Program-made: the position numbers and the translations under genes
In this document: positions 4,589 through 34,118 of the stretch, in pieces
Position numbering within the stretch: position 1 is the first letter of the stretch
Layout of the letters: each line of letters starts with the position of its first letter
The notes under the pieces: model-generated
Databases searched by the model: none
What the model was told of the DNA's origin: nothing
What the model saw: only the letters and a program-made list of their open reading frames with translations
DNA from: an uncultured Actinomyces sp.
GTDB lineage: Bacteria > Actinomycetota > Actinomycetes > Actinomycetales > Actinomycetaceae
Direction: 5' to 3'
Assembly: GCA_900556405.1 (NCBI GenBank)
Contig: USPB01000001.1
Span: 1 to 50,318 of the forward strand
Length of the DNA: 50,318 nt

Positions 4589-6046
4589 TCAGTGGCCATG
4601 GTGATGCGACCTATGCGGGGAGTGATGTCCGCCGCCGCTGTGGCTTCCACCCTTGTGGCTACCGCCGCTATGGCTGCCGCCGCTATGGCTGCCGCCCTTG
4701 TTGCCGCCACCATTGTGGCTACCGTTATGGCTCCCACCATTATGGTTGCCACCCTTGTGGTTACCACCGTTGTGGTTGCCACCCTTGTGGTCGCCATTGT
4801 TGTTGCCACTCTTGTGATCACCACCATTATGGTTGCCACCCTTGTGGTTACCACCGTTATGGTTGCCACCCTTGTGGTCGCCATTGTGGTTGCCACCCTT
4901 GTGATCACCGTTGTGGTTGCCACCCTTGTGATCACCGTTGTGGTTGCCCTTATGGTCGCCACCCTTGTGGTCACCACCCTTGTGGTCACCGCCACCATCA
5001 TGGCCGCCACCATCGTGGTCGGATTTACCGCCACCCCAGTCAATATGGGGCTCGATGCTGGGGTTAACCTCAATGTGGCGGTCTTCGCTATTGTCGACGT
5101 CACCGTTGTTGATGGTGCCATTGTTGTCACCGCCAACAACTGTGCCGCTGTTGTCTCCGCCAACCGAGGTGCCACCGGAGGTGCCACCGTTAGCCGTGCT
5201 ACCGCCACCGGCACTGCCGTCGCTACCGGCGGTGCCGCTCGTCGAGCCGCCTTCGCCGCAGCAACCGCCGCCGGGTGCCTGGCACTGCTCGCCGATGTGC
5301 TCGACGCCACGAGTCAGGTCATCACCAGCCGAGGTCATGACGGCGTAGATGGCCTCGATCGCCTGGAGGGCGTTCACAAGGACCTCGAGGATAGGCTCGA
5401 TGCGTCCGACCCACTTGGAAGTCTTACCAGCCACCTGGGCTGCCGCCACGGGCGTCGCGAGACCGAACGAGCAGATTTCTTCCGCGACGACCTCGAAACA
5501 CGTGACAACGATATCCGCGATAGCGCTCACGACGGCGTCGTGGATATTGTCAACAGAGTCCGCGACCTTGGACAGCGCTTCGCCGAAAGCACCCGACGCC
5601 TCGGACACGCCGTTGATCGCGCTGTAGACGACGGCTTGACGCTCCTGGTAGGCGCGTACGGCTTCACCGTGCATGTCGGCGAAGTCGCTCGCAGCTGCAT
5701 TTTCCAGCTCTTCAGCAATGGATGCGAGGGAGCTGGAGATGGAATCCCAGCTGGCGCTCATGCCGTACACCTGCCCGGAGTCGCCGGTCAGCTGGTTGAT
5801 CCAGGTTTTGAGCGGATCCACGTGCTGCATGATCCATTCGACGACAGAGCCTGCGATGCCACCGACAGGATCCAGCATCAGATTGCCGGCCTCCTCAACG
5901 AGTCCCCGCGCGGAATCAACGAGGTTGGTGACATCGCCCGAGCGCAGATCCTGGGCAGCATTGTAGAGAGTGTCAAAGACGGCCAGGCCCTCTGTCGGGG
6001 TGGTGTTGTCGATACTCCGAGTGTATTCGGGGGCTTCGGGACTCAC
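4589..6046 (-). CDS. Putative T7SS substrate: WXG100/EspA-like helical N-terminus + Gly/His/Asn/Asp/Lys low-complexity tail
   Basis: N-terminal DPVGGIAGSVVEWIMQHVDPLKTWINQLTGDSGQV...W...MHGEA resembles actinobacterial WXG100-like substrate domains. Tail of GGNHNGDHK-type repeats ending HHSPHRSHHHGH. GTG start overlaps the upstream stop (GTGA). Confidence 0.78.
   Translation of the reverse strand: MSPEAPEYTRSIDNTTPTEGLAVFDTLYNAAQDLRSGDVTNLVDSARGLVEEAGNLMLDPVGGIAGSVVEWIMQHVDPLKTWINQLTGDSGQVYGMSASWDSISSSLASIAEELENAAASDFADMHGEAVRAYQERQAVVYSAINGVSEASGAFGEALSKVADSVDNIHDAVVSAIADIVVTCFEVVAEEICSFGLATPVAAAQVAGKTSKWVGRIEPILEVLVNALQAIEAIYAVMTSAGDDLTRGVEHIGEQCQAPGGGCCGEGGSTSGTAGSDGSAGGGSTANGGTSGGTSVGGDNSGTVVGGDNNGTINNGDVDNSEDRHIEVNPSIEPHIDWGGGKSDHDGGGHDGGGDHKGGDHKGGDHKGNHNGDHKGGNHNGDHKGGNHNGDHKGGNHNGGNHKGGNHNGGDHKSGNNNGDHKGGNHNGGNHKGGNHNGGSHNGSHNGGGNKGGSHSGGSHSGGSHKGGSHSGGGHHSPHRSHHHGH
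4592..5035 (-). repeat. Coding minisatellite (12/15-bp units) encoding G(G)xHN/K repeats
   Basis: Repeated GCCACCCTTGTGG / CACCGTTGTGGTT units on the + strand. Confidence 0.9.
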
Positions 6047-7746
6047 TTCTTAACTCCTTCGAACAGGAAGCGACGCAGCGTCCGCTCCTCATCCTGACGC
6101 TGACGGTAGAGGAATGTTTCGATGTCCTTATCGCCGCGATCATCCTGTCGTTCGAACAGTGAACGCACGTCGTCCGTATTCGTATCGGGGTTGGCCTTGG
6201 AGAACTCCTCGATGCGGGCGGACTGGGCCTTCTCCTGCTGCTCAACGAAGCTGCGGTAGCTGGCCTGCTGGTCGTTGCGCTGCTGCGACATGAAGGTGTC
6301 AAAGTCCCTGGATGTCGCCTGCGGGTGATCCTGCACGTACTGGCGGATCTGCGTTTCCTCATCGGTACGTTGACGCGACAGGAAGTCCGTCATCGCGTCC
6401 TGCTGCTGTTGCTGGTTGGACTCGATAAGGGTCTTTATCTGGGAGATATCCGTACCCGGATGCGCCTCAGCGTAGCGTGCGAGAGCCTCGCTCTGGTCTT
6501 CCTTCTGGCGCTCGTAGAACTGCGACAGATCGGTGTTTTCGTCATCGCGCTGCTTCTCGAGGAACGCGCGAAGATCGTCCTCGTTCGAGGTGATCTTGTC
6601 GTGGCCGCCAAGGAGACTGTCGAAGTCATTACCGGGGGCACTGTGGTCCCCGTGCTTGCCATCGGAACCATCGTGGCCGTCGGAACCGTCCTTGCCGTCA
6701 TGACCGTCGTGACCGGAACCGTCCTTGCCGTCATGACCATCGTGACCGTTCGAACCATCGTGACCGTCGGAACCGTCCTTGCCGTCATGACCGTCGTGAC
6801 CGTCGGAACCGTCCTTGCCGTCATGACCATCGTGACCGTCGGAACCATCCTTGCCATCGTGGCCCGAACCGTCGTGACCGGAGCCATCGTGGCCCGAACC
6901 GTCGTGACCGGAACCGTCGTGGCCCGAACCATCGTGACCCGAACCATCGTGACCCGAACCATCGTGACCCGAACCATCGTGGCCTGAACCGTCAGAGCCG
7001 CCAGAACCATCAGAACTGCCGGAGCCGCCGGAGCTATGCGTGCCAGGGGTCGGAGGAATCGGGGTGGAAGGCTTATCGCCGCTGGAATCACCGCCGCCGG
7101 AGCCATCGTGGCCCGAACCGTCGTGACCCGAACCGTCAGAGCCGCCAGAACCGTCAGAGCCACCGGAGCCGCCGGAGCTATGCGTGCCAGGGGTCGGAGG
7201 AATCGGGGTAGAGGGCTTGTCGTCCCCGGAGCCATCGCCGCCGCCGCTGGAATCTCCACCACCACCGCTGCTGGAACCGCCACCGCCACTGCTGGAACCG
7301 CCGCCGCCGCTGCTGGAACCACCACCGCCGCCGCTGCTGGAACCGCCACCACCGCTGCTGGAACCACCGCCGCCGGGCGAGGGCGTCGGAGAAGGACCAG
7401 GCTGAGGCTGAGGCTGCGGATTGTCCTGCCCCTCATGAGCCTTCTTAATATCCTCCTTGATTTTCTGCTCAAGATCGTCCATCTCCTGAGCCCATTGAAG
7501 GAGGCAGTTAACGAGACGCTTCTCGGCACCGGCGCAGTCGGTGATCATCTTGGTCAGATTCTCGATCTGCGAATTGACGGGAGGAGCGAAGAAGGCACAC
7601 ATGAGGCCGAACGCATTGCCGCTGGCCTGACCATGCGTCGCGTTAGCGACACCCACATTCTTGTCGAGGGCCGATGCGTTGTCGCTGACCGTGGATGCGT
7701 GGCTACGGATTGTCGCCGTATTGACGCCGAGATCCACCCCGCTCAT
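6043..7746 (-). CDS. Putative T7SS substrate: EspC-like N-terminal domain, Gly/Ser linker, GSGHD and collagen-like GxD repeats, helical C-terminal repeats
   Basis: First ~100 aa (LGVNTATIRSHASTV...AFGLMCAFF...QWAQEMDDLE) resemble the 'type VII secretion target'/EspC family. ATGA overlap with the upstream gene and GTGA overlap with the downstream gene. Confidence 0.75.
   Translation of the reverse strand: MSGVDLGVNTATIRSHASTVSDNASALDKNVGVANATHGQASGNAFGLMCAFFAPPVNSQIENLTKMITDCAGAEKRLVNCLLQWAQEMDDLEQKIKEDIKKAHEGQDNPQPQPQPGPSPTPSPGGGGSSSGGGGSSSGGGGGSSSGGGGSSSGGGGSSSGGGGDSSGGGDGSGDDKPSTPIPPTPGTHSSGGSGGSDGSGGSDGSGHDGSGHDGSGGGDSSGDKPSTPIPPTPGTHSSGGSGSSDGSGGSDGSGHDGSGHDGSGHDGSGHDGSGHDGSGHDGSGHDGSGHDGSGHDGKDGSDGHDGHDGKDGSDGHDGHDGKDGSDGHDGSNGHDGHDGKDGSGHDGHDGKDGSDGHDGSDGKHGDHSAPGNDFDSLLGGHDKITSNEDDLRAFLEKQRDDENTDLSQFYERQKEDQSEALARYAEAHPGTDISQIKTLIESNQQQQQDAMTDFLSRQRTDEETQIRQYVQDHPQATSRDFDTFMSQQRNDQQASYRSFVEQQEKAQSARIEEFSKANPDTNTDDVRSLFERQDDRGDKDIETFLYRQRQDEERTLRRFLFEGVKK
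6640..7375 (-). repeat. Coding repeats: 9-bp GxD units, nine 15-bp GSGHD units, a 144-bp internal duplication and GGGSSS units
   Basis: GAGCTATGCGTGCCAGGGGTCGGAGGAATCGGGG occurs at ~7031 and ~7175; tandem ACC(A/G)TCGTG(A/G)CCCGA-like units at ~6855-6990. Confidence 0.9.
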
Positions 7747-8273: not shown

Positions 8274-9482
8274 CTAATCCGCGTGATAGCGCGGGCTCGT
8301 CCCCAGGTGAGCCGGGTAGCCATAGGCATCCGAGTTCACCACGCGTTCGTCGAAGCCCCGGTAGACGTACTCGTCGTCGTTGAAGATTGCACGCGGATCA
8401 ACAACCCCGGCTGCATAGTCCTCAAAGTTATCGAAGGTCACGACGAGATCACCGCCCTTGTCTTCGAAGGGATTCGCGTCCCGATACTGTGTGGGGTCAG
8501 AAGCGAGGAGAGCCACCGGATCAACCTCACCGTAACCGGTTCGTTCATTCCATTGTCCACCGGATCCGCTGGCCGTGGCGGCGAGCGCCTGCAGGATCTG
8601 GTCTGATGTTATGTCGCTGCCAAAACCTGCCCACGCCAGCGCGAGAACACCGGCGATCAGAGGCGCGGAAAACGACGTTCCCGCGACCGTGTAGATACTA
8701 TTCGTGCTGGCCCTCCGCGCGACTCCCTCGCCGACAGCGACGAGGGACACACCATCACCCCAGTTCGAGTAGTCCGCGTATCGCCCATCCGTCTCGAGAG
8801 CGCCGGCACCAATGACACCACCCCACGTGCCGAGAACGTCGTCCGGATTGCGTTGTCCTTCGTTGCCCATCGATACGACGACCGGTACGCCTCGTACAAC
8901 GGCGCGGGCCACCGCCCAGCGCAACGACTCTGCATCGCTGCGGGCAAAGGACGTGGAGATAGAGATAATGTTCGCGCCGTCATTCAGCGCCTGTTCGATG
9001 AGGCCCGCTTGATCCGCGAGAGCATGCGAATTACTTCCGAGGGAGCAATCCGACCCGGCGTCTCGCTTGAGACCTGCCTGCGCGTAGCTATAAATCGTCG
9101 CGCCGGGGGCGACACCGAAGTCGGGAGCAACCAGAAACTGAGCGATATACGTCGCGTGATCGTTGGTCTCCTGATCTGTTTGAACGGTGCACGGGGTCTT
9201 GTCTTGAATGTCAGCACCCGCCAGCTCAGGAATCGAGGTGTCGATATACCCATCGATAACGGCGATGATCACGCCCTCTCCCGTGTATCCCTGTGCGTGC
9301 AGAGAGGCCAGAGAATAGCGCGAGTAATAGGCCTCGTCGGCAGCTGTAATCTGATGGTCCACCGCATGGGCAGGAGCCACGGGGACGACGGGCGCCACCA
9401 CGATGCCTGCCGCCAGCGCGCACGCCGACGCCATCACGCCCAGGGTGCGCAGGCCTCGCGACCAACGGAAAGAAAGGCTCAT
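8274..9482 (-). CDS. Secreted S8 (subtilisin/mycosin-like) serine protease, paralog 1
   Basis: Signal peptide ending APAHA; catalytic motifs IAVIDG, DHAT, SMGN, GTSFSAP; C-terminus HLGTSPRYHAD; no TM anchor. Confidence 0.9.
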   Translation of the reverse strand: MSLSFRWSRGLRTLGVMASACALAAGIVVAPVVPVAPAHAVDHQITAADEAYYSRYSLASLHAQGYTGEGVIIAVIDGYIDTSIPELAGADIQDKTPCTVQTDQETNDHATYIAQFLVAPDFGVAPGATIYSYAQAGLKRDAGSDCSLGSNSHALADQAGLIEQALNDGANIISISTSFARSDAESLRWAVARAVVRGVPVVVSMGNEGQRNPDDVLGTWGGVIGAGALETDGRYADYSNWGDGVSLVAVGEGVARRASTNSIYTVAGTSFSAPLIAGVLALAWAGFGSDITSDQILQALAATASGSGGQWNERTGYGEVDPVALLASDPTQYRDANPFEDKGGDLVVTFDNFEDYAAGVVDPRAIFNDDEYVYRGFDERVVNSDAYGYPAHLGTSPRYHAD

Positions 9483-9529
9483 GTTTTCTCCTCTTTCGTC
9501 ACTTCACTGACGCTGCCACCGCTAGGGCA

Positions 9530-10732
9530 CTATTGCTGGGCGTGATAGCGCGGGCTCGTGCCCAGATGGGCTGGGAATCCGTAGGCGCCAGAATCCACTA
9601 CCCGTTCGTCGATTCCTCGATAGACGTACTCGTTATCGTTGTATATGTCTTCGGGATCCACGAGGCCATCAACATAATCGTCGATGTCGTCGGAAGTCAG
9701 CACGGGATCGTTACCCTTGTCTTCAAAGGGGTTCTCATCCGGGTACTGCGTCGGGTCAGAGGCAAGGAAGGCCACGGGGTCGATCTCCCCGAAACCGGTC
9801 CGATCGTTCCATTGACCGCCCGAGCCGCGAGCCGTGGCAGCCAGTGCCTGCAGAATCTGCCCCGACGGCACATCACCATCGAAGCCGTTCCATGCCAGGG
9901 CCAGGACGCCGGCAATCAGCGGCGTCGAAAACGAGGTCCCTTCGACCGTCTTCAGCTGATTGGTGCTGGCCTCACGCGCGTAGAACTGCCCGACGGCGGC
10001 GATGGAGACTCCGTCACCCCAGTTGGAGTAGTCCGCGTATTGTCCGTCGGTTGCGAGCGCAGCGGAGCCAATCACACCGGCGAAGGGTCCCATGGTATCG
10101 GACGCGTTGTACTCGCCGTCGTTACCCATTGATACAACAACGGGAACGCCTGCTGCTACCGCGCGGGAAACCGCCCACCGCAGCGATTCCTCGTCGGCCT
10201 CGTTGTAGGAGGATGTGATAACGATGATGTTCGCGCCGTCGTTGAGCGCCTGCTCGATGAGACTCGGCTTGCGCGCCAGAGCGGCCGAATTGGATCCGAG
10301 GGCACAGTCCGAATCCACGTCCCCCCAGTCGTCCGCGTACGCGTAGTTGTAGATCGTCGCGCCGGGAGCGACCCCGAAGTCGGGCGCAACCAGGATCTGG
10401 GCGACTTCGGTCGCGTGATCGTCAGACTCCGCGTCATTGGTGACCTCACAGGGGGTCTTGTCCTGGATGTCTGCACCCTGAAGTTCGGGGATTGAGGCGT
10501 CGATATGACTGTCGATAACAGCAACGATGACGCCGTCGCCGCGATACCCGCGTGCGTGCAGGTCAGCCAGTGAATAGCGGGAATAGTAGGCCTCGTCGGA
10601 TGCCTGTACCTTGTGAGAATCCGCGTGCGCGGCCGGTGAAGGAGCCACCAGCGTGCCCACCGCGAGAAGGCAGGCCGACACCGTCACGCACAGGGCGCGC
10701 AGGCGTTGGAAACGATTAACCAATGGCGTCAT
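9530..10732 (-). CDS. Secreted S8 serine protease, paralog 2
   Basis: Signal peptide ending AAHA; VAVIDS, DHAT, SMGN, GTSFSTP; C-terminus HLGTSPRYHAQQ; clear tandem paralog of 8274-9482. Confidence 0.9.
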   Translation of the reverse strand: MTPLVNRFQRLRALCVTVSACLLAVGTLVAPSPAAHADSHKVQASDEAYYSRYSLADLHARGYRGDGVIVAVIDSHIDASIPELQGADIQDKTPCEVTNDAESDDHATEVAQILVAPDFGVAPGATIYNYAYADDWGDVDSDCALGSNSAALARKPSLIEQALNDGANIIVITSSYNEADEESLRWAVSRAVAAGVPVVVSMGNDGEYNASDTMGPFAGVIGSAALATDGQYADYSNWGDGVSIAAVGQFYAREASTNQLKTVEGTSFSTPLIAGVLALAWNGFDGDVPSGQILQALAATARGSGGQWNDRTGFGEIDPVAFLASDPTQYPDENPFEDKGNDPVLTSDDIDDYVDGLVDPEDIYNDNEYVYRGIDERVVDSGAYGFPAHLGTSPRYHAQQ

Positions 10733-10862
10733 TATTGTCGTTCCTCTCGGTGAATCGGGTGGGTGGGGGCGACCTGCGCCGTGTCAGCGGACGGCAGGGC
10801 GCGCGAGACGCGAGGGCGCAGTGACCAGAGCTACGACACCAGCGCTCCTGCGGCGCCTCGCC

Positions 10863-12287
10863 TCACGACAGGTCTTCGTCTGGCTCTTCGACGACCGCGG
10901 GCCTGCCGCGCAGGTGCGACAGGATCACGAGGCCGGCGATCATGGCGACACCGAGCACGGCGATCGCGGAGACGATGTAGGCGCGGACCGTCAGGTTGTT
11001 ATCCCGTTGCGTCAGGTTCGGCGAGGCGACAGCGGGGCGGGCGGGGGCGGGATGCTCAGCCGCGTTGGGGTGCGCTGGCCCGTATCTCGTGCCGATGTCG
11101 GTGAAGGTCAGCGCGTCAAAGGGGGCGACGATCCCCCACCCGAGCCCATCGGTGCGTTGGTCGGCGGTGCCGCGTACGGCTGTCACCTCCAGGCGGTACT
11201 TCCACATCTCGGGTCCCTCGTCCGGGTACGCCGACGCGATGAGCGCCGCGAAACCTGCGGCGTAGGCGGTCGCATAGGAGGAGGAGGGCATCGGCTGGTC
11301 GCCCTGGTATCCGCCGACGAGGCAGTCGGCCTGGTTGAACCATGTCGTGAGGATGACGCCGGCTGGAACAGCGATCCCGACGTGCGAACCGTGCACCTGC
11401 TGGTCGGAGGCTGACCCGTCAGCGTTCGAGGCCGTCACGCCGAGGACGCTCTCGTAGGCGGCCGGATACACGACCTTGTTTTGCTCCTGCCCCTGGTACA
11501 CGTTGCCGGTCGAGGCCACGACGAGGGCACGGCCGCGCACGGATCGGATTGCCGCTTCGAGGTTCGCGTCGCCCTCGGCCGCCGACTGGGCGACGACGAT
11601 GATTTGCGCGCCATGGTCGGCAGCCCACTGGATGCCTCTGCCGACCTTGGACATGAAGGTCTCTTCGCCTTCCTTCGTCGAAGTATCCTGCTCGAGGCCA
11701 GTGTCCACGCGGACGGGAAGAATCGTCGCCTCGGGGGCGACGCCGATGAGGCCAGAGTTCTTTGACTCGGGCAGTTCGCGGGCAGCAATCGCGCCGGCGA
11801 TCGCGGTCCCATGCTCGCCGACGTCGACGCGCCCGTCGGTGTTTTCGCCACTCAGATCCACGCCGGGGAGCACCACGGGGCCGTCGGAGGACTGAAAGTG
11901 TTCATTGCCTGCGGCCACACCCGAGTCGACGATGGCGACAGTCACGCCCTTGCCGCGGGAAATCTCCCACGCGCGCCGCACGCCCACGGCATCGAAGATC
12001 TCGGGCTGGTTCTTAATGTACGACGGCGAGTTCTCGGAGCATTTCCCGTCCCCTGAGTCGGCCGGGGTGGTCGGCGTCGGGGAGGGAGATGCAGTCGGGG
12101 TGGGACGCACACTCGGCGTCGGCACCGGGTCGGCGTGCGCGGGGGCCGGGCCAAACGCGCCCCCAGCCCCGGCCTCGTCCGAGGGGGTGAGGGGGGCGAC
12201 CAGGGCGGCGAGCGTCAGGCCGGCGATCAGGGATGCCCCGACGAGGCCTCGGCCCAGCGCCCAGGATCTGGCACGTATGCGGATCAC
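10863..12287 (-). CDS. mycP: Mycosin (T7SS membrane-anchored S8 protease)
   Basis: VAIVDSGV, EHGTAIAG, GLIGVAPEATILPVRV, STGN, SSSYAT; C-terminal TM helix (YIVSAIAVLGVAMIAGLVIL). Start set at GTG 12287, which overlaps the eccB stop (GTGA). Confidence 0.85.
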   Translation of the reverse strand: MIRIRARSWALGRGLVGASLIAGLTLAALVAPLTPSDEAGAGGAFGPAPAHADPVPTPSVRPTPTASPSPTPTTPADSGDGKCSENSPSYIKNQPEIFDAVGVRRAWEISRGKGVTVAIVDSGVAAGNEHFQSSDGPVVLPGVDLSGENTDGRVDVGEHGTAIAGAIAARELPESKNSGLIGVAPEATILPVRVDTGLEQDTSTKEGEETFMSKVGRGIQWAADHGAQIIVVAQSAAEGDANLEAAIRSVRGRALVVASTGNVYQGQEQNKVVYPAAYESVLGVTASNADGSASDQQVHGSHVGIAVPAGVILTTWFNQADCLVGGYQGDQPMPSSSYATAYAAGFAALIASAYPDEGPEMWKYRLEVTAVRGTADQRTDGLGWGIVAPFDALTFTDIGTRYGPAHPNAAEHPAPARPAVASPNLTQRDNNLTVRAYIVSAIAVLGVAMIAGLVILSHLRGRPAVVEEPDEDLS

Positions 12288-13735
12288 GACAGCCCCGCTG
12301 AGGTAGCAGCCGCCTGAGGCGTCAACTCCGATCCGGGGGGAATGATATTGCCCCACGCCTGCGGGATCATCGCAACGTCATCCGATGTCCACCCGAGGGC
12401 CTTGAGCGAGACGGCGGGAGCATCGCCAAGCGAATGTCGGTACCCCATATCCGAAATGAAAACGTAGGCACCGGCATCGCCACCGCCCGCCGTCAGGGAC
12501 GCGACGACCCCGGAACCGCCGGCCACGGTGACCGTGCGCGACGTCGTCGGACCACCCGTCGCAGAGACCGATTCAGGGTCGTAGGAGGCCTGGATGGCGC
12601 GCTGCTCCTTCATGGTGTACAGGCCAAATTGCGGAACAGCCTTGTCCTTCGTGTCCATCTTGGTGCACAGGACGGTGCGGCTGGCCGCGTCAAGCTTGTC
12701 GTCCTTCCACTCCGGGTTCGCGAAGTCATCGACGGCGGGCCAGTCCTCGCCGATGAAGTCGGCCTGCACGGGCGCGACGTCCTTGAACATTTCCGTCGGA
12801 TACTGCTCAACCTTCGGTGCGTCCTGGTAGAGCTTGGCCGCAGTTGAATTGAAGACGGCCAAATCGGAGTCGTTGATGACCAGATAGGAGTTGAGGACCT
12901 CGCCATTGGAATTGATCTGTTCGACGACCGTGCCGATCGTCAGGTTCTCATTCTTGAGTGGGCCCGGCAGATTCCTCGCGGGCTCGCCCGCGTTGGGGAT
13001 GTCGCTGTAGCTCCACGGCTTCAAACGCGTGCCGGAGGGGAAGAGGTCGAGCCACTCGGGTTCGACGATGATCGGGTACGCCGTCCTGTTCTGGAAGGAC
13101 AGGACCCAGTCGCCCAGGCGGCTCACGGAGGCGTCAATAAGGTACTTCTTGTGGGTCTTCGCGTCGATGAAGTACTTGTCCTCGCTGCCCACCGCCTGCA
13201 CGAGGGCCGCGGTGGCGGGCTGAAGCGGGAAGTTATCCGTCGGCAGGTCCTGGGCGATCCACGTGTGGTAACTGGTCGGCAGGTCGCAGGAGAGCCACGT
13301 CGAGGCAAGGTCTGCGGATGCAGGCACGTCGTCTGGGACGCCGGGCAGGCCGATCTGGGCACCGCGCGGGGTGTCCTTGAGGGACGAGGCACTGGCACTG
13401 ACGATCGTCAGGCCGGAGTCTCCCGCGAGAAGCTTCGCGGTCGTCACGTTGCTGATCGGGTGTAGCACGCCGTTCACTGACAGGTAGCGCGCGCCCGTGT
13501 CCTTGACGTCGACCAGCTTGTAGTTAGCGTCCGTCAGGTCTGGTTTAGCTGCGAAGCTCCGCAGGGCGATGCCGATGACGCACACAATGATGGCGACGAC
13601 GGCGCCGAAGATGAGAGGCCGCACCGGGGAGGGAGTGTCGACCTCGCGGCCGCCAGGGGTACCCGACGTAAAGGCCGTGATCAGACGGTTTCGGTTGAAG
13701 CGTTGGGCTTCGAGGATATCTTTACTGGTCGGCAT
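12284..13735 (-). CDS. eccB: Type VII secretion protein EccB
   Basis: MPTSKDILEAQRFNRNRLITAF N-terminus, single TM, LHPISNVTTAKLL and PRGAQIGLPGVPD motifs. Confidence 0.92.
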   Translation of the reverse strand: MPTSKDILEAQRFNRNRLITAFTSGTPGGREVDTPSPVRPLIFGAVVAIIVCVIGIALRSFAAKPDLTDANYKLVDVKDTGARYLSVNGVLHPISNVTTAKLLAGDSGLTIVSASASSLKDTPRGAQIGLPGVPDDVPASADLASTWLSCDLPTSYHTWIAQDLPTDNFPLQPATAALVQAVGSEDKYFIDAKTHKKYLIDASVSRLGDWVLSFQNRTAYPIIVEPEWLDLFPSGTRLKPWSYSDIPNAGEPARNLPGPLKNENLTIGTVVEQINSNGEVLNSYLVINDSDLAVFNSTAAKLYQDAPKVEQYPTEMFKDVAPVQADFIGEDWPAVDDFANPEWKDDKLDAASRTVLCTKMDTKDKAVPQFGLYTMKEQRAIQASYDPESVSATGGPTTSRTVTVAGGSGVVASLTAGGGDAGAYVFISDMGYRHSLGDAPAVSLKALGWTSDDVAMIPQAWGNIIPPGSELTPQAAATSAGLS

Positions 13736-13738
13736 AGC

Positions 13739-15100
13739 TCAGCCCCACATGTAGACGGCCAAGGGAATCAGGGCAAAAAGCGACAGCACCGAGATAGTGT
13801 CGGCGAGTCGCGTCAGGTGCGGACGCGCACGAGGCCCGACGACGTTCGTGATGACGAGCACGAGGGCAGCCGCAATTGCTGCGAGGGCCACCCACGCCAG
13901 CATCGTTGGTTCCGCGCGGGTGGCGAGGCTCGCGGTGATCAGGATCGTCACCAGACCCGTGAGAACACCGAGGAGGACCTCCACGCGCGCGCGAATCGAG
14001 CGGGTTTGGAGGATCAGGGAGATCGATCCGAGGAAGACGAGGATCATCGGGAGGAGCACTGAACGGGTGCCGGGCGCACTCATCAACGAGACCGCGAGGA
14101 AAATCGCTGCCAGCGCCCCGCCCGCGCGCAAGGCGACGACGAAGACGAAGGAAGTGCCGACCTGGTCGGTGATCGTTTGGGCGGGAATCTGCTCGGTCGT
14201 GTTCGCGTCGAGGATACGCACGGGAATGTGTGCCAGGGCAATCCACGGCGCCATCTGGAGGAGGACGACCACGAAAGCGAAGAGGGCAGCGGAGACGCCG
14301 ACCTGTGAGAGGGAACCGAGAGAGACCAGGAGACCCGTCGTCGCTATCACCGTACCGAGGACGAGGGGTGCCACGATCGAGATGCGGTAACGCTTGGGCA
14401 GTGTGAGGATCGCGAGCGAGCCGACAAGGAGGCCGACACCGATCCAGATCCACCCGGCGGTGTCCCACTGGCTCTGCGTGAGACGAAGCGCGGACGCGCA
14501 GGTCAGAAGGGGCACTGTGTGCGCCAGCGCGATGCCGCTGGGCCGGGGGCTCTGGCGCGTGACGACAGCCGACGTGCCGGTGACGAGGAGGGCAGCGATG
14601 ATGCCGATGACGCCGTAGACGCGGTTGAGCAGCGTGATGCGCTGGGGGTCCAAGGATGCGAGGGCATCCGGGGGCGTGGTCGCCAGGAGGAGGGCGGCAA
14701 CGAAAATGAGGGCAGCGGCAGACAGCGCAGCAAGAATGCGAGCATCATCACGCGTCCAAGGGGTGGACACTCGTTCGACGACTTGACCGACCGCTTCAGT
14801 GAGGTCGTCGTAGACCATGTCGGCAGCGCCTTCACCAAGAGGCTCGAGCGTGAGGGCGGCTCCCGCACGCACACCCTGGGCAGACAGCGACTTCGACTGG
14901 TCCAGCAGACGACCTGACGCGGTCCTCACCGAGAAGCCATCATTTGTCGGCTGATCAGTGAAAGCACCAACGGTTTCAACCATTCCAGGCAACAGCTCCA
15001 CGAGAGGGATCGACTGCGGAATCGTCACGTCACTACGATCAACGCCATAGGTAATCGTGAGCGGAATCAGCGCCACTCCTCGAGATGTTTTCGTTGCCAT
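13739..15100 (-). CDS. eccD: Type VII secretion integral membrane protein EccD (copy 1)
   Basis: Ubiquitin-like N-terminus (DVTIPQSIPLVELLP...LLDQSKSLSAQGVRAGAALTL), YDDLTEAV linker, ~11 TM helices, ends LIPLAVYMWG. Confidence 0.9.
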   Translation of the reverse strand: MATKTSRGVALIPLTITYGVDRSDVTIPQSIPLVELLPGMVETVGAFTDQPTNDGFSVRTASGRLLDQSKSLSAQGVRAGAALTLEPLGEGAADMVYDDLTEAVGQVVERVSTPWTRDDARILAALSAAALIFVAALLLATTPPDALASLDPQRITLLNRVYGVIGIIAALLVTGTSAVVTRQSPRPSGIALAHTVPLLTCASALRLTQSQWDTAGWIWIGVGLLVGSLAILTLPKRYRISIVAPLVLGTVIATTGLLVSLGSLSQVGVSAALFAFVVVLLQMAPWIALAHIPVRILDANTTEQIPAQTITDQVGTSFVFVVALRAGGALAAIFLAVSLMSAPGTRSVLLPMILVFLGSISLILQTRSIRARVEVLLGVLTGLVTILITASLATRAEPTMLAWVALAAIAAALVLVITNVVGPRARPHLTRLADTISVLSLFALIPLAVYMWG

Positions 15101-15216: not shown

Positions 15217-15295
15217 AAACATGGTTAGTATTCATACGTCCCCATGCTCTCACGCATCCCCGCGGGAGAGTCCACTCATACAAATGGAGGTTCAC

Positions 15296-15601
15296 ATGGC
15301 AGACCAGAGGGCCGCAGACGGCGCCCTGAAGCAGGGTTACACAGCGGTTGAGTCCACCAAGACCGAAATCGACGGCCACCTCAGCCGTCTTGAGGGCGAC
15401 CTGTCGACCATCGGCAGCTCCTGGCAGGGCGCTGCGGCGACGCAGTTCCAGACGCTGATGAATCAGTGGCATGAGAACGCTGCCAAGGTTAACCGGGCTC
15501 TTCAGGATCTCGCTGATAACCTGCACGCCACCGATTCGTCGATGTCACACAACGAGGCCGAGACCGAAAACTCGTTCTCCAGCCTGGCCGGCGGACTGTG
15601 A
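15296..15601 (+). CDS. WXG100-family secretion target (EsxB-like)
   Basis: 101 aa with central SSWQGAAA; RBS GGAGG before ATG 15296; first of a tandem pair. Confidence 0.93.
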   Translation: MADQRAADGALKQGYTAVESTKTEIDGHLSRLEGDLSTIGSSWQGAAATQFQTLMNQWHENAAKVNRALQDLADNLHATDSSMSHNEAETENSFSSLAGGL

Positions 15602-15627
15602 GAGATTAGGTAGATTAGGAGACTGAT

Positions 15628-15909
15628 ATGGATTTCCAGGTAAACTACACCGCGCTTGACAGCGCCGCCGCTGACATCAAAACCGGTGCCAATAACCTGC
15701 AGAACTGCCTCGACGACCTCGAGCAGACGCTGAACCAGCTGCGCTCGAATTGGGAAGGCAAGACACAGGAAGCCTACGACGAGGCTCAGCGTCGTTGGAA
15801 CCAGGGCCTCACGGGCCTGAAGGACGTGCTGAACCGTACCTCCAGCGCTGTCGACGCCGCTCGCTCCAACTACCAGACGACGGACCAGTCCAACGCTGCC
15901 CGCTTCTGA
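15628..15909 (+). CDS. WXG100-family secretion target (EsxA-like)
   Basis: 93 aa with NWEG motif and a C-terminal YxxxD secretion motif (YQTTD); RBS AGGAG. Confidence 0.93.
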   Translation: MDFQVNYTALDSAAADIKTGANNLQNCLDDLEQTLNQLRSNWEGKTQEAYDEAQRRWNQGLTGLKDVLNRTSSAVDAARSNYQTTDQSNAARF

Positions 15910-15934
15910 GAGCATGAGCGCCTAGCGCTCTGGG

Positions 15935-15966
15935 AAGGGCCGCCCCGCATGGGGCGGCCCTTTTCT
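15935..15966 (+). terminator. Intrinsic terminator after the esx pair
   Basis: AAGGGCCGCCCC-GCAT-GGGGCGGCCCTT followed by a T-rich tract. Confidence 0.9.
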
Positions 15967-16005
15967 GTTTCGTGCGCATTGTTTCGTGCGCTTTGTATCG
16001 TGCGC
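15966..16005. repeat. 14-bp tandem repeat x3
   Basis: TGTTTCGTGCGCAT / TGTTTCGTGCGCTT / TGTATCGTGCGC. Confidence 0.8.
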
Positions 16006-16214
16006 CCGTCTTGCCGGGCCCGCCTCTACTCGCATCTGGCATTCGGTGCGCGCACTGCGCGATTGCTCGACCGCTGGATCAACGTCGCTCGGGCCCGGCG
16101 CAATTTTCCGTCCGGTTGAATTACCTATGTGCCAGGCAGCAGAAAACCGCCCTTTCCTTCGAAGGGGACAGCGGCGGGAGGCATCCAACTGAACAAACTC
16201 CAACACTCACGCCC

Positions 16215-16327
16215 GGGGTCAGAGCCGCGTGCAGGGCGCGGAGTCAGAGCCGCGTGCAGGGCGCAGGGTCAGAGCCGCGTGCAGGACCAGGGGTCAGAGC
16301 CGCGTGCAGGGCGCGGGGTCAGAGCCG
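16215..16327. repeat. 25-bp tandem repeat x4.5 (intergenic VNTR)
   Basis: GGGGTCAGAGCCGCGTGCAGGGCGC units at 16215, 16240, 16265, 16290 and a partial unit at 16315. Confidence 0.92.
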
Positions 16328-16356
16328 GGAGTGAGACCGGGACGCGCAAGTCGGAG

Positions 16357-17754
16357 TCAGCGCGCAGAATCCGCGTCAGCGTGGACGATCGTGGCGCGAC
16401 GTTCACCCATGAGGATCTCGGTGCCCGCAGGGACCTCAACGGCCTGACCGCCGGTCAACGCGGTGATACGCCCGTCGGGGGTGCGGATCTGCGTGCCGTT
16501 CGCGGAGAACGAGTCCTCAATCCACGCCCCACTTGCTGTGGGACCCACGCGCATGTGCGTGCGCGACAGGGACACCGTCGTATCGGGCACGACGACAGCG
16601 CGCGACCCTTCGACGGCTGCAGGTGCCCGCCCCAGGGTGAGCGGCATGTCGATGAGCTCACGCTGGCCCGAGTCGAAAATGAGCCACAGGAGCTGCGCGC
16701 GCGGCGGCGTCGCGGGCGCGCCCCACTGGGACTGGCCGGCGCCTCCCCACTGCCCCTGGGGGCCGGCGGCGCGCTGGGCAGCCTGCACGTCGCGACGACT
16801 CGGTGGCGGTCCAGGCACGCCCGAGGCCGGGGCCTGGTACTGCACCGGAGCAGAGTACGGGGGCTGAGCGGGTTCCTGGCGCGCGGGCCCACCCCAGCCG
16901 TCCTGGGGCGCGGGCGACGCGGAGGGCGCGGGCGACGCGGAGGGCGCAGGCACCGCCGGGGGCTGCTGGGCTGGTACCTGTGCGGGCGTGGGCCGCTGGG
17001 GTGCCGGACGATGAGTCTCGGGCGCGCCCTGAGGTGGTGCGAGGAGTGCATCGAACTGCGTGGGCTCGTGAGCGGCGGGCGCGGACGGGAGCGGCGCCGC
17101 CGGAACCTGCGCGGCAGCGGGCGCAGCCGGAACCAAGGGAACACTCGGCGCCACTGGCGCACTGTAGGGATCGTTCGCTCGCTGACCGGGAGCCGAGTAG
17201 TCGGGCATGGACGAAGGAACGGGAGTCAGCGGGGCATTCGGCGCATCCCACTGACCCGCACCTGCCTGCACGCCCTCGAAGCCGCTGGGCGCCTGGCCGG
17301 GGCGGGGATCATCCACCGCCTGTCCGGGACCCGCAGCGAGGGCCGCGTGTGTGCGCAGGTCGACGAAACGCGTATGCGTGGGCCCATTGAGCCACGTGCG
17401 CCCATCATGGACCATCGCGTACGAGGCCAGCAGACCCACAACCGTCAGCTGAAGCAGCGCACTCAAGGCCGTGTAGCCCATGGCCGCTCCCAGCGAAGGA
17501 GTCTGGGCGTCATCCTCGTCTCGAATGAGGCACACGCGCATGAGGGCCATACCCGGGGTCCGCCCCGACACCCCCAGCATGACGCCGGAGGCAACCACGG
17601 CCTCGGCGATGATCAGACCGACCGTCACCGGCGTGAAATAGACGAACCACGTCACCCCCACCAGCGCCCCGAGGACCAGCAGGTCGATGACGTACGCGCC
17701 GACGAGCCGCGAGGCGGTCGCGCAGGCGAAAGGAGTCTTCGTGGTGTCACCCAT
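16357..17754 (-). CDS. RDD-domain membrane protein with Pro-rich linker and C-terminal FHA domain
   Basis: RLVGAYVID...GRTPGMALMRV (RDD); LTLGRAP...SLSRTHMRV...IEDSFSANGTQI (FHA GR, SxxH and NGT motifs). ATG 17754 overlaps the upstream stop (TAATG) and has a GGAGG RBS. Confidence 0.87.
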   Translation of the reverse strand: MGDTTKTPFACATASRLVGAYVIDLLVLGALVGVTWFVYFTPVTVGLIIAEAVVASGVMLGVSGRTPGMALMRVCLIRDEDDAQTPSLGAAMGYTALSALLQLTVVGLLASYAMVHDGRTWLNGPTHTRFVDLRTHAALAAGPGQAVDDPRPGQAPSGFEGVQAGAGQWDAPNAPLTPVPSSMPDYSAPGQRANDPYSAPVAPSVPLVPAAPAAAQVPAAPLPSAPAAHEPTQFDALLAPPQGAPETHRPAPQRPTPAQVPAQQPPAVPAPSASPAPSASPAPQDGWGGPARQEPAQPPYSAPVQYQAPASGVPGPPPSRRDVQAAQRAAGPQGQWGGAGQSQWGAPATPPRAQLLWLIFDSGQRELIDMPLTLGRAPAAVEGSRAVVVPDTTVSLSRTHMRVGPTASGAWIEDSFSANGTQIRTPDGRITALTGGQAVEVPAGTEILMGERRATIVHADADSAR

Positions 17755-19175
17755 TACAGGATCGCCCTCCAAGCAAACTCGAAGAGACCCGAGGAGAAAA
17801 TCGCCGCGGGGAGAAGTGCAAAAATACAGAACGACTGCACGAAGTCGAGGATCGTGCCGATCAGCGCGGCATGTCCCTTGGGCTCATACAGCGTCATCCA
17901 GGCCACCAGCGCGATGCCCGTCAGGACGAGGACGCACACGGGCAGGACGGGATAGATCTGTGCGCCGACCGCCCAGGACTTCACCCAGGCGCCAAAGAGG
18001 AAGGCACACCCGATGCCGGCGGCACCAATGCGCGGAAGGACCCTCCCCATCGGCGTGCGGGCACCCCTCGGCGCCGTTAACAGGGTCACCACGGCCGCGA
18101 TGACGATCACGAAACCGCCGACGCCTCGACCCATGGCCACCGTTGGCATCACCGTGCGAGCGAGGGGGATACCACCCGCGAGGGTGAACAACGTCGAGGC
18201 GGTCAGCAGCAGCGTGTAGCGGGCATCGGTGTGTCCGATCGCCGTCTTCATGCGCCCGCCGGTCACCGGCGTGGGAGGGACCATCATAGGCTGGCGGATA
18301 CGCGAGGCAATCGTTTGCACCGCCGCCGCATCGATCAGCTGACTGTCGGGCACGCGCAACGCGAAGCGCGGGGCCATGAGGAACAGGAACACACCCAGGG
18401 CCAACGCGAGCGGCGCAATATTAATCAGGTGGAAGAACGGGTAGGCGCCAATCGTCACGAGGACGGTCGCCCCGAGCCACGCCATCATGGCACTGAGCGC
18501 CGTCGGCGTGTTCGTCAGCGAGAGCACCGCCAGGGACACGACGAGGGCCACCCACACTCCGACAACGGGCGCGAGCGAGAGGGCATGGATACCCGCCATC
18601 GACACGAAGCCGATGGCACTGTAACCCGCGAGCGCCGGCATCAGGAGGAGCAGGAGGGACATCGAGCGCAGCCTGCGCGAGGCAAACAGCGGAATGATCG
18701 CAACCGCGCAGCACACCAGGGCACATACTCCGCGCGCCCACGTCGGGATCGACGAGGCCGCGAGCGCCCAGGCGGGCCCATCCTCCCTGTGGGCGAGCCC
18801 ACTCAGGGCTGCGTCGCCCATCATGGGCAGCAGGCACAGTGAGGAGACCGCACCAATGAGGAGGAAGCACAGGCCGATCAGGGCGAGGGTGGGGGCGAGC
18901 CACTGATTCTCGTGGCGCTCCGAGGCCTCGTTGAGCTGGCGTGCGGACAGGACCCGGCTGGACAGGGCGATTGTCGACCCGGCGGGCAGGTCGCGGCCGA
19001 GGACCGCAGCCCCGTCGAGGGGACGCCCGTCGGCGTAGGAAATACGCACGGACGGCAAGGTGAGGTCGATGGCCAGCATGGCGCACAAACCTGCGACCGT
19101 GGTCCCTGTGGGAGCGGCGAAATCGGAGGCCCCATCGGAGTCGATAACGGTCACGGACACCATGGTGGCGCTCAT
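17754..19175 (-). CDS. Second EccD-like membrane protein
   Basis: Ubiquitin-like N-terminus (VSVTVIDSDGASDFAAPTGTTV...GRPLDGAAVLGRDLPAGSTIALS), ~11 TM helices, APRFALRVP internal loop and LLPAAIFSSG end, paralleling copy 1. RBS GGAGG before ATG 19175. Confidence 0.72.
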   Translation of the reverse strand: MSATMVSVTVIDSDGASDFAAPTGTTVAGLCAMLAIDLTLPSVRISYADGRPLDGAAVLGRDLPAGSTIALSSRVLSARQLNEASERHENQWLAPTLALIGLCFLLIGAVSSLCLLPMMGDAALSGLAHREDGPAWALAASSIPTWARGVCALVCCAVAIIPLFASRRLRSMSLLLLLMPALAGYSAIGFVSMAGIHALSLAPVVGVWVALVVSLAVLSLTNTPTALSAMMAWLGATVLVTIGAYPFFHLINIAPLALALGVFLFLMAPRFALRVPDSQLIDAAAVQTIASRIRQPMMVPPTPVTGGRMKTAIGHTDARYTLLLTASTLFTLAGGIPLARTVMPTVAMGRGVGGFVIVIAAVVTLLTAPRGARTPMGRVLPRIGAAGIGCAFLFGAWVKSWAVGAQIYPVLPVCVLVLTGIALVAWMTLYEPKGHAALIGTILDFVQSFCIFALLPAAIFSSGLFEFAWRAIL

Positions 19176-19205
19176 GAAACCTCCGATCTCAGGGAAACAA
19201 CAGTG

Positions 19206-19269
19206 CCCAGTGTAATGCACTGAGGCTAACCGCCGGTTAAAACTTGGAAGAGCACTCAGCTACACTGGG
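19206..19269. promoter_or_regulatory. Symmetric back-to-back promoters for eccD2 and eccC
   Basis: TACACTGGG on the + strand (19261-19269) and on the - strand (19214-19206); TACACT fits the actinobacterial TAnnnT -10 consensus. Confidence 0.55.
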
Positions 19270-19313
19270 GACAGTCGCATCGAACACGTACGCGCGCAGC
19301 GCGAGGAGACCTG

Positions 19314-22300: not shown

Positions 22301-23357
22301 GGCGGCCCGTTGGATGGATATCCGCGCCGAGGCGCAGGATATTTTCGGGTCGCGCCTGGAGCTTCACACGGCGAACCCGAAGGAGTCGATCGTCAACCGC
22401 GAGGGTGCCGCCCGTATTCCGAAGGGGCGCCCGGGGCGCGGCATCGACATGGCGGGGCACGAGATGATGATCGGCCTGCCGCGCGCGGACGCGGAGCAGG
22501 ATCCGTCAACCGTGTCGCAGGGCGTGGCGTACACGGTCAACAAGATTCGCGAGTGCCTGGTGGCGGGCGAGGGCCCGAAGCTGCGTCTGCTGCCCCAGCA
22601 GATCACGCTTCCGGAGATCCTCTCGCAGCTGCCGGATCAGCAGATCCTGCCGCGCGGCGGCGGCGACATGGTGCTGGGCGTGGAGGAGTCGCGCCTGGGG
22701 CCGCTCCTATTCAACACTCGCGCGGAGTCGCACCTGTACCTGTTCGGCGACGGCAAGACAGGCAAGACCTCCTTCCTGCGGTCGATCATTTCCGAGGTCA
22801 CGCGCCTGTACTCGCCCAACGAGGCGAAGATCCTGGCGATCGACATGCGTCGTTCGCTGCTGGGTGCGATCCCGGACGAGTATTCGCTGCGCTACCTGAC
22901 GAACCATGCCGAGGCGATGAAGCAGCTGCGTGAGCTGGCGAAGTTCCTGCGCACGCGCCTGCCCGGTTCCGACGTGACCGCCGAGCAGATTCGCGAGCGC
23001 ACGTGGTGGTCGGGTCAGGAAGTGTGGATCTTGGTCGACGACTACGACCTGGTGGCCACCTCGTCGGGTAACCCGCTGATGGAGCTCATTGACCTCCTGC
23101 CGCAGGCGGGAGACATCGGCCTGCACGTGATCATCACTCGTCGTATGGGCGGCGCGTCGCGCGCGGCCTACGAGAAGGTCCTGCAGATGATGAACGACCT
23201 GGCCGTCACCGGCATCCTCCTGTCCGGCAATCCCAGCGAGGGCGCGATCATCAACGGCGTGAAGCCGAAGCGCGCGATCGCCGGCCGCGCGCAGGTCGTT
23301 CACCGCGAGCTGGGTGTCGTCGCCGCGCAGCTGACGTGGACCCCGCCAGAAATTTGA
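19314..23357 (+). CDS. eccC: Type VII secretion FtsK/SpoIIIE ATPase EccC (EccCa+EccCb fused)
   Basis: Two N-terminal TMs; GMGPHGLLIGATGSGKSE, LVDFKGGATF; further Walker A motifs GGPQTGKS and GDGKTGKT; 1347 aa. Confidence 0.96.
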   Translation: MVTRKKRRIAAVPEQPSGSLALQMPPEKAEPASMGNVLMMVVPMLGSTGVMIFMAMQNNGGGRSMLMGGGMLVAMLGMVGFNMYRQFSQYRTRVKTQRREYLSYLAETRESIRKVAKKQRAYYNWVYPDPDALVTLAANGSRLWSREGNTYNVLTFRYGSGTQPLGLTFERPPIDPMTEMDVVCLSAMERFIAVHDHTDNVGKFLYLGDFSHIEVVGEGESAYDEIRAIMMHLACFIEPSKLKIAVLCSADRLGDWEWVKWMPQARSANVRDAIGPARMISTDPRELVEMIGPDIAMRGAYRPGEEMPEWPHLLLVCDGAEFPTSSPFGSATGVRGVTIMSRAREWTPMKSHTALRLVIHPSPNRKGADVVDVVTMDSVPESAFADRLSAVQAEAVARRMTPFATQEKLEESDTPVGRSDESRQKDLMELVGIGDIRDFDPEKQWVRREGRARLAAPFAVTPEGRPVVLDIKESAQQGMGPHGLLIGATGSGKSEVLRTLVLALALTHSPEQLNLVLVDFKGGATFAGMADLPHVSAMISNLESELSLVDRMQDALQGEMVRRQEMLRQAGNYANVSDYEADRLAGKHEYPPLPALFIVLDEFTEMLMAKPEFGEVFIMIGRLGRSLSVHLLLASQKMDLGKARGLESHLSYRIALKTFTESDSREVLGIPDAAKLPPLPGSGFLKAGGDGLVRFRASYVAAPPPARTLASIAEASTAGAPSAPIEILPFTVAPVITREALGEEEEVDQNQEIVLAGDEVWADMSEMDIAVAKMKGKGYPAHQVWLPPLEVPDTFATLMPDLAPDPELGFISRAWRESGVLRVPLGTVDLPLEQRRETLVLDLSGAGGNFALVGGPQTGKSTALRTIVQALSLTYTPQEVQFYVMDFGGGTFAGFAGAPHVAGVATRDTEEVRTRMLAEIAAIMDDRERYFRAHGIDSMDTYRRGRLAGTYDDGYGDVFLVIDGWGALRSEFDGLDREVTTMMSRGLSLGVHLVVSAARWMDIRAEAQDIFGSRLELHTANPKESIVNREGAARIPKGRPGRGIDMAGHEMMIGLPRADAEQDPSTVSQGVAYTVNKIRECLVAGEGPKLRLLPQQITLPEILSQLPDQQILPRGGGDMVLGVEESRLGPLLFNTRAESHLYLFGDGKTGKTSFLRSIISEVTRLYSPNEAKILAIDMRRSLLGAIPDEYSLRYLTNHAEAMKQLRELAKFLRTRLPGSDVTAEQIRERTWWSGQEVWILVDDYDLVATSSGNPLMELIDLLPQAGDIGLHVIITRRMGGASRAAYEKVLQMMNDLAVTGILLSGNPSEGAIINGVKPKRAIAGRAQVVHRELGVVAAQLTWTPPEI

Positions 23358-34111: not shown

Positions 34112-34118
34112 GCGATCA

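Follow-up and report, generated by a model that had tools for sequence, protein, structure and literature searches.

What does a small secretion-system protein do with a collagen-like tract and a large helical domain at its end? The question is raised by one gene in a 50,318-nt stretch of DNA (the window; contig USPB01000001.1 of assembly GCA_900556405.1) from an uncultured Actinomyces sp. Its product joins an EspC-like hairpin (N-domain), a repeat-rich linker and a C-terminal helical domain (C-domain). A preliminary description, made from the sequence alone, had proposed a collagen-like stalk or fibre exported by a type VII secretion system (T7SS) and paired with the adjacent His-rich protein. 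The protein proved to be collagen-like in only some strains of oral Schaalia-type bacteria, while its C-domain is the most conserved part of the three-gene cassette. The reading that we favor on balance, with moderate confidence, is that the gene encodes an EspC-like member of a T7SS cassette which gained a helical domain on a variable spacer, and that the product is exported with its partner and displays the domain against Saccharibacteria. The gene and its parts are as follows (aa, amino acids).

6043..7746, minus strand: gene under study (P0001, 567 aa), middle gene of the three-gene cassette
7432..7746, minus strand: EspC/EspF-like helical hairpin, aa 1-105, with AFG at the turn, MxxxE and the invariant Cys81
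6991..7431, minus strand: Pro-rich hinge, Gly/Ser linker and duplicated DKPSTPIPPTPGTHSS block
7174-7221 and 7030-7077, minus strand: the two DKPSTPIPPTPGTHSS copies, at aa 176 and 224
6856..6990, minus strand: nine tandem GSGHD units, aa 253-297, a 15-bp DNA repeat
6643..6864, minus strand: Gly-X-Y tract, aa 295-368, of GHD, GKD and GSD triplets
6046..6636, minus strand: conserved C-domain, aa 371-567, with four predicted helices and 15/45/90-residue repeats

The C-domain was found once per genome in 26 of the 338 genomes searched in the family, all in one genus (26 of its 75 genomes, and none of the remaining 263), and no stop interrupts any of the 26 matches. EccB was present in 55 of the 75 genomes of the genus and in all 26 that carry the C-domain. 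When 20 orthologous regions were fetched and compared together with the window, the mean identity was 77% for the C-domain, 55% for the N-domain, 47% for the partner and 57% for the chaperone encoded upstream. The median ratio of nonsynonymous to synonymous substitution rates (dN/dS) was 0.21 for the C-domain, 0.41 for the N-domain and 0.59 for the N-domain of the partner; 163 of the 210 pairs were used for the C-domain and 94 and 101 for the two N-domains, near-saturated or nearly identical pairs being dropped. Moreover, 85 of the 197 columns of the C-domain are invariant.

The C-domain is built from repeats. Its sequence autocorrelates at lags of 15, 30, 45, 60, 75 and 90 residues (z 5.4-9.4 over 200 shuffles), and its two 90-residue halves have 24 identities in common. 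Each 15-residue unit has probable core positions at a spacing of 3-4-4-4; two of these are hydrophobic (Leu/Ile and Phe) and two polar (Gln and Glu/Gln), and Phe/Leu and Gln/Glu layers alternate in the predicted core. Pentadecad repeats favor right-handed bundles. AlphaFold2, run with a 21-row alignment, returned four helices of about 40 residues with a predicted local distance difference test score (pLDDT) of 85 and a predicted template modelling score (pTM) of 0.78, and the C-domain is thus predicted to be a complete single-chain four-helix fold.

Searches with the C-domain led back to its own family. A phmmer search of 1.84 billion representatives gave eight matches, of which five are family members, one at full length and four fragmentary or frameshifted. 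Three weak matches to repeat proteins (17-30% identity) have only a helix-HP/NP turn in common with it and were rejected as homologues. The PDB sequence search gave nothing under E 0.03, and Foldseek with the model gave no match at E<=0.001. By VIA, the best alignment was to a designed helical protein (Z 10.0, root-mean-square deviation (rmsd) 4.1, 127 residues aligned), which is within the range of generic bundles. The Atlas feature search was blank, and the Atlas structure search returned four clusters, all of the C-domain's own family. The C-domain is therefore without a specific family or fold match in these sequence and structure searches, which does not by itself prove a new fold. A duplicated WXG100/EspC hairpin was also considered and rejected, the profile-comparison probabilities being 0.24% and 0.03%. 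Six short matches were inspected as stand-alone candidates; among them the singleton P0032 (215 aa) begins inside the linker and is likely a broken gene call.

The features named in the preliminary description were all present in the open reading frame (ORF): three Cys (positions 50, 71 and 81), Gly/Ser linkers, the duplicated block, the nine GSGHD units, the Gly-X-Y triplets and an acidic C-terminal region. The doubling of DKPSTPIPPTPGTHSS is a 144-bp duplication at the DNA level, and three isolated GSGHD copies lie elsewhere in the protein. The Gly-X-Y tract consists of 16 strict triplets (295-342), a G-S-G break and 8 further triplets (345-368). Residues 371-567 have a net charge of -16, with FxxxQRxDE at 395, 455 and 545 and HP/NP turns at 429, 474 and 519, 45 residues apart. 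At the DNA level the repeats are tandem, and their periods range from 9 to 144 bp. The repeat units as such are not an assembly oddity, because two other genomes (G061 and G081) carry identical repeat units and C-domains 96% identical to that of the gene under study. Opposite-strand ORFs overlie the repeats (6325-6987 and 7036-7752); the family matches and the purifying selection belong to the minus-strand frame. No paralogue was found in the own genome assembly (80% complete), and a promoter and terminator scan gave counts near chance. Among sequencing runs, none contained more than a fraction of 0.18 of the words searched. No strict Gly-X-Y run in the six-frame ORFs of the genome exceeds these 16 triplets; the next longest have 15 and 8. 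A second Gly-X-Y-like run in the genome (G000:C26:6437-6793, plus strand; 15 triplets, GVE/GVD) falls in a single six-frame ORF, which may be no more than a repeat read in a frame that is not coding.

The linker was then surveyed in the 26 genomes, four of whose linkers are cut by contig ends and give lower bounds. Complete linkers measure 78-281 aa and are Gly-rich, Pro-rich or of the Gly-X-Y type, unrelated in sequence. The longest strict Gly-X-Y run reached at least 14 triplets in 5 genomes and at least 8 in 14; it was 4-5 triplets in 2 and fewer than 4 in 10. None of 22 database homologues, all keeping the C-domain, had a run of at least four triplets, in a sample biased because the search returned only non-collagen alleles. 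The linker of the gene under study has 26 His, and linkers with at least 20 His occurred in 3 of the 26 genomes; since the partner tail, too, is rich in His in some alleles only, His enrichment does not hold as a general feature. These results indicated that the Gly-X-Y tract is real and dispensable in evolution.

Does the tract nevertheless make a collagen stalk or fibre, with the C-domain trimerising, the tract zipping into a triple helix (aided by acid pH or by metal at His/Asp) and the whole exported by Esx? If a collagen-like tract is taken as at least six contiguous Gly-X-Y triplets or a profile score over the cut-off, the excised segment is one, scoring 48.5 bits against Pfam Collagen (PF01391; cut-off 27.2), while a scan of the full-length protein gave no Pfam Collagen match. 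Four orthologues of one allele pass at full length; their uninterrupted runs comprise 14-46 triplets, and they carry 4-8 KGE/KGD motifs. An Atlas cluster bears the automatic name Collagen/EspC. In addition, the last run ends 2-16 residues ahead of the C-domain at all 16 loci with runs of at least four triplets, and collagen folding nucleates at the C-terminus (PMC11923368; for all papers cited by PMC number, statements refer to the portion of the text that was available). The tract holds 22 Asp, 6 Lys and 13 His and therefore would be near neutral once His is protonated. A review describes charged, Pro-poor bacterial collagens that rely on an adjacent trimerisation domain (PMC8968730); the C-domain adjoins the tract but is modelled with confidence as a complete single chain.

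Against such a stalk, 12 of the 26 genomes have a short tract or none, and 10 of these and all 22 database homologues keep the same C-domain with no run of four triplets. The tract of the gene under study has a net charge of -16 and contains neither Pro nor KGE/KGD, which are described as stabilising triplets (PMC11923368), and KGE/KGD motifs occur in just 4 of the 14 tracts with at least eight triplets. In the two closest relatives the tract is interrupted every 5-10 triplets, and slippage alone keeps the register because the Gly-X-Y units are 9- to 36-bp DNA repeats. The collagen-like stalk of the preliminary description therefore survives as a tract found in some alleles and not as a general function, and we consider the stalk unlikely as an account of the gene. 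A triple helix is likewise doubtful in the allele under study, and is a more serious if still tentative possibility in the long KGE/KGD allele. An elaborated version, in which C-domains trimerise, Gly-X-Y stalks rise from EspC-like hairpins that anchor or polymerise, and a strain-variable coat acts against Saccharibacteria, seems improbable to us, as does its corollary that the triple helix is constitutive in the KGE/KGD allele (up to 46 triplets) and acid- or metal-switched in the His/Asp allele. If it were true, exchange of cassette alleles would help to set the epibiont host range.

The N-domain places the protein in the T7SS world. Searched alone, it matched PF10824 (EspC) at E=1e-4 with 23.1 bits, just under the cut-off of 23.5. 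All 21 orthologous N-domains matched at E<=0.1 (best 1.3e-6), one full-length orthologue reached 23.7 bits, and three of four stand-alone relatives scored above the cut-off. AlphaFold2 predicted a hairpin (pLDDT 84) with helices at 10-43 and 54-105, a WXG100-like helix-turn-helix fold. The top Foldseek rows for this model were WXG100 proteins (template modelling (TM) scores 0.65-0.74 by query, but E 0.12 or worse), and the VIA alignment to EsxA 3zbh (Z 10.3, rmsd 1.7, 91 residues aligned) was tied with those of unrelated hairpins. The EspC/WXG-like fold assigned earlier to the first ~100 residues is supported. At the secretion-signal position after helix 2, the orthologues carry MxxxE (17/21) or LxxxE (4/21), with an invariant Glu. 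EspC proteins are stand-alone and of about 100 aa; the protein here has 567 aa, and the 22 complete orthologues among the 26 have 364-567 aa. An EspA-like partner and a YbaB-fold chaperone are encoded alongside. The cassette thus matches EspC-type modules by anatomy, short of strict EspC membership.

The surroundings of the gene bear out the T7SS context that had been proposed, since genes for EccB, EccC, EccD, MycP and WXG100 proteins lie around it and make up a complete Esx cluster. The gene order in the window is eccD-eccB-S8-S8-S8-YbaB-gene under study-partner-trkA, with the following neighbors.

4589..6046, minus strand: likely partner (P0002, 485 aa), WXG100-like, positional orthologue of OBNOAD_00338
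7743..8138, minus strand: YbaB/EbfC-fold protein, likely an EspD/EspH/EspL-type chaperone, its role by analogy
8274..15100, minus strand: two secreted-type S8 proteases, MycP, EccB and EccD, the upstream part of the same gene run
15221..23357, plus strand: two WXG100 genes and EccC, the remaining Esx core
15221-15601 and 15628-15909, plus strand: the two WXG100 genes; 19314-23357, plus strand: EccC

The stop of the YbaB gene overlaps the start of the gene under study, whose own stop overlaps the start of the partner gene in 21 of 21 loci; the partner's ribosome-binding site sits within the terminal FEGVKK codons. The three-gene order was kept in all 20 fetched orthologous regions. These genes (YbaB-fold, EspC-like and WXG100-like) form a translationally coupled cassette within the Esx cluster.

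Several neighbors deserve mention in their own right. The S8 paralogues at 8274-9482, 9530-10732, 26152-27387 and 27475-28722 have a common HLGTSPRYH end in place of MycP's membrane anchor, and the S8 genes beside the cassette vary from 0 to 3 between genomes; the four could be processors of substrate linkers. Between the WXG100 genes and EccC, on the minus strand, lie the genes of a Pro-rich 471-aa protein (16357-17772), in the place of the FHA protein OBNOAD_00328, and of a further EccD-like membrane protein (17754-19220), in the place of the eccD OBNOAD_00327; neither protein has a Pfam match. A DUF559/REase-like gene (2248-3261, plus strand) between trkH and trkA is missing at two of the relatives' loci (L033 and L046) and 55-84% identical in the others.

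The partner consists of a WXG100-like helical region of about 255 aa and a disordered Gly/His/Asn/Lys tail. Such tails were disordered and of low complexity in all 21 loci (89-261 aa), and their last 60 residues were net basic in 15 of the 18 complete ones. At the end of the helical region a C-x6/7-GGCCG motif is invariant in 21 of 21 (residues 255-265; ~5255-5290, minus strand); together with the invariant Cys81 of the gene under study, this sequence feature suggests disulfide or metal links. The stop/start overlap and the co-varying alleles described below make the proposed pairing with the neighbor likely; the further claim of a His-rich neighbor applies to part of the alleles.

The partner has no Pfam or NCBIfam match beyond the helical region and so no toxin domain by these libraries, and no immunity gene lies downstream, where just 171 nt separate the partner stop from the convergent trkA. 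Toxins do appear among its relatives. A profile search with the N-domain gave 12 weak matches in 10 genomes besides 26 strong ones, which come from exactly the genomes that carry the C-domain. Eight of the 12 were fetched, and in all eight an EspC-like frame lacking the extension is followed by a partner homologue with a long C-terminal region, with a YbaB-like gene upstream in seven and downstream in one. A TNT toxin domain scored over the Pfam cut-off on three of these eight partners (L085 and L086 in G005, and L088 in G054). G005 holds two cassette copies with near-identical N-terminal regions and different C-termini. The other five partners (L082, L083, L084, L087 and L089) have long C-terminal regions with no Pfam toxin family match, which are candidate unnamed interbacterial toxin domains. 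In G006 the relative cassette adjoins trkA as in the window. The cassette of this clade likely descends from a toxin-delivery cassette, on a comparison that is unrooted, and its design is inverted: the folded cargo sits on the small protein, and the partner is without its relatives' toxin domain.

The cassette also differs between strains in its alleles. TrkA is 98% identical on average across the compared regions, while the cassette splits into several deep alleles. Nine pairs among 20 sequences had EccB at least 95% identical and N-domains below 65%, and in four pairs the relation was reversed. The pairwise identities of the two N-domains correlated with each other (rho 0.94), as expected of cognate partners, and hardly with TrkA (0.09 and 0.07) or EccB (0.19 and 0.23). 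Their trees have 14 of 18 splits in common, against 4 of 17 with EccB; the trees of chaperone, N-domain, C-domain and partner share 8-14 of 18 splits, and EccB 1-4 of 17. These results show that cassette alleles have been exchanged between strains, the pattern of divergent, exchanged alleles known from polymorphic toxin cassettes. EccB itself (12284-13735; orthologues L027-L046) has divergent alleles of 58-99% identity beside the near-constant TrkA, so the Esx core is also mosaic.

A function for the cluster comes from a 2026 preprint by Wang, Mougous and colleagues (PMC13622651), in which the Esx system of Schaalia odontolytica F0309 limits Saccharibacteria and Esx loss favors the epibiont. 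The F0309 order is 331 eccD, 332 eccB, 333-335 S8, 336 YbaB, 337, 338 and 339 trkA, the same as in the window, so the gene under study corresponds by position to OBNOAD_00337. That work lists OBNOAD_00337 and 00338 as candidate Esx substrates, with no domain description, mutant or secretion evidence, and the terms "collagen" and "EspC" do not occur in its main text. With the epibiont TM7-008, the mRNA of 00337 rose by log2 fold changes of 1.28 and 1.54 (adjusted P 5.6e-4 and 5.7e-5), compared with 0.17 in the esrA1 mutant, 0.14 in the esrG1-T152A mutant and 0.12 with the evading TM7-074. In the whole-cell proteome the raw protein signal was up ~3-4 times, and ~1.1 times in the esrA1 mutant. 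Induction of 00337 by the epibiont thus runs through Esr1.

Other parts of that system can be located in the window. The likely AesA and AesB genes are 24021-24539 and 24572-26173 (plus strand), which follow EccC and a 179-aa gene, the 533-aa protein having a Gly-rich tail and GYVNP; the locus tag of aesA differs between the main text and the strain table of the preprint (PMC13622651). At 28804-40157 (minus strand) a Ser/Thr kinase, a transglutaminase, a DUF58 protein and a 2012-aa Ig/Fn3 repeat protein match its Esr2 sensing cluster.

Taken together, the reading that we favor would run as follows. The N-terminal hairpin would pair with the partner as an EspC/EspA-type heterodimer that the YbaB-fold chaperone stabilises, which we regard as very probable, and this dimer would probably leave through EccC by means of the M/LxxxE variant signal. 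Export would follow epibiont sensing, and the bundle would be presented at the cell surface. There the spacer, whether Gly-rich, Pro-rich or Gly-X-Y, would act as a length-variable tether, the pair would stay on the surface, and the bundle would bind or block a surface structure of the epibiont; these last steps, taken jointly, could fall either way, and we are evenly divided on an anti-epibiont role in general. A triple helix would be at most an optional, allele-specific stiffening of the spacer. The grounds for proposing that the pair is retained at the surface are the basic C-terminus of the partner, the conserved Cys and the absence of the pair from the supernatant. The bacterium under study has no mycolate outer membrane, unlike mycobacteria.

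A number of points weigh against this scheme. The orthology to OBNOAD_00337 is positional, drawn from gene order and not from sequence. The EccC-dependent secreted set comprises EsxA, EsxB, AesA and AesB and leaves out 00337 and 00338, in a secretome sampled from mono-culture and from cell-free supernatant only; deletion of aesA or aesB alone impairs defence, and searching its strain table gave no deletion strain for 00337 or 00338 (PMC13622651). Induction is common to the whole operon and is therefore not specific evidence for this gene. The Tyr of the canonical YxxxD/E motif is missing in all 21 orthologues. Homology and fold searches revealed no target or activity of the C-domain, and so conserved a domain suits an arms-race binding surface less well than a variable one would. 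Finally, linked genes co-vary without binding, and the rows compared are kin rather than independent, which limits the co-variation signal.

Some of these points would fit an accessory that the Esx machine retains, inside it or attached to it, as a plug, a regulator or a co-secretion factor, its C-domain binding for example EccC or the chaperone. The positional orthologue was detected in whole-cell proteomes and not among secreted proteins (PMC13622651), the signal is non-canonical, the C-domain is strongly conserved, and mycobacterial Esp pairs are mutually required for secretion (PMC6109436). Against this, 29 of the 55 EccB-bearing genomes of the genus have no C-domain match, and the cassette, whose exchange does not follow EccB or MycP, likely descends from toxin-delivery cassettes. 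We therefore judge such an accessory role to be unlikely.

Decay is a still poorer explanation. It holds that the partner lost its toxin and that the linker and repeats are neutral products of slippage with no role, consistent with the missing toxin domain, the want of space for an immunity gene before trkA and the strong variability of linkers and tails. The intact single-copy C-domains, with their invariant columns and low dN/dS, make it very improbable, as does a positional orthologue that is transcribed, translated and regulated (PMC13622651). The weakest alternative is a metal- or haem-scavenging substrate, with metal-binding His/Asp repeats and a hemophore-like C-domain: TIGR04529 (hemophore-related; E=1.1e-5, 26.1 of 32 bits, 20/21 members), PF16525 (hemophore; 18.3 of 27.4 bits, 16/21 members), the His-rich linker and Tyr425 and His429, both of them present in 21 of 21 whether or not the next Pro is kept, speak for it. 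Both profiles stay under their cut-offs, however, and their 33 matched positions of 77 lie at the second helix turn, not at the invariant Tyr/His turn; in addition, few linkers are His-rich and induction tracks the epibiont sensor (PMC13622651), so that we judge it very improbable as well. The structure matches listed for the C-domain were generic helical bundles.

The locus and its status as a candidate substrate were already known (PMC13622651). Neither the literature searched nor the available text of that preprint describes the inversion of the cargo, the domain of no named family, a spacer that is collagen-like in certain alleles, or exchange of the cassette. The preliminary description lacked the YbaB-fold chaperone gene upstream, the exchange of alleles and the connection with epibiont defence that has been published. 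For the use of Esx by Actinomycetaceae against Patescibacteria, one disordered effector and no mechanism have been reported (PMC13622651). The cassette is a second co-induced candidate pair in the same cluster of a genetically tractable host, and its inverted cargo design includes a conserved, predicted folded domain that matches no named family. A cassette swapped between strains could also bear on strain-specific susceptibility to epibionts. Triple helices in the long KGE/KGD alleles, if they form, would make these proteins collagens that travel by a type VII system; no such case was found in the literature searched.

Compared with known systems, the window matches OBNOAD_00337/00338 gene for gene from eccD and eccB through three S8 genes, YbaB, 337 and 338 to trkA (PMC13622651). 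With AesA/AesB the pair has in common helical N-domains, a variable Gly-rich disordered region, a conserved C-terminal element and induction by the epibiont. It is nonetheless a separate pair: the cargo of AesB is disordered, whereas here a predicted folded four-helix domain is carried by the smaller-type partner. Charged Gly-X-Y runs beside a non-collagen domain are also present in prokaryotic collagen-like proteins (Scl1/Scl2, Bcl; PF01391). Unlike theirs, the tract here is short, Pro-free, not conserved among orthologues and joined to an Esx targeting domain, in a protein with no Sec signal, wall anchor or shown trimerisation domain. The YbaB/EspC-like/WXG100-toxin cassettes of the same genus have the three families in common with it and, in G006, also the site by trkA; they differ in that here the partner tail is disordered and the small protein bears the folded domain. 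In mycobacteria, EspC bears YxxxD/E and has EspA as its partner; it requires the YbaB-like EspD, just as EspE/EspF require EspH and EspL (PMC6109436, PMC6319747). Like the EspA-EspC-EspD and EspE-EspF-EspH sets of ESX-1, the cassette encodes together a small hairpin, a larger helical partner and a YbaB-fold chaperone; unlike the small mycobacterial EspC, its hairpin protein carries the M/LxxxE variant and is extended by 460 aa that include a predicted folded domain.

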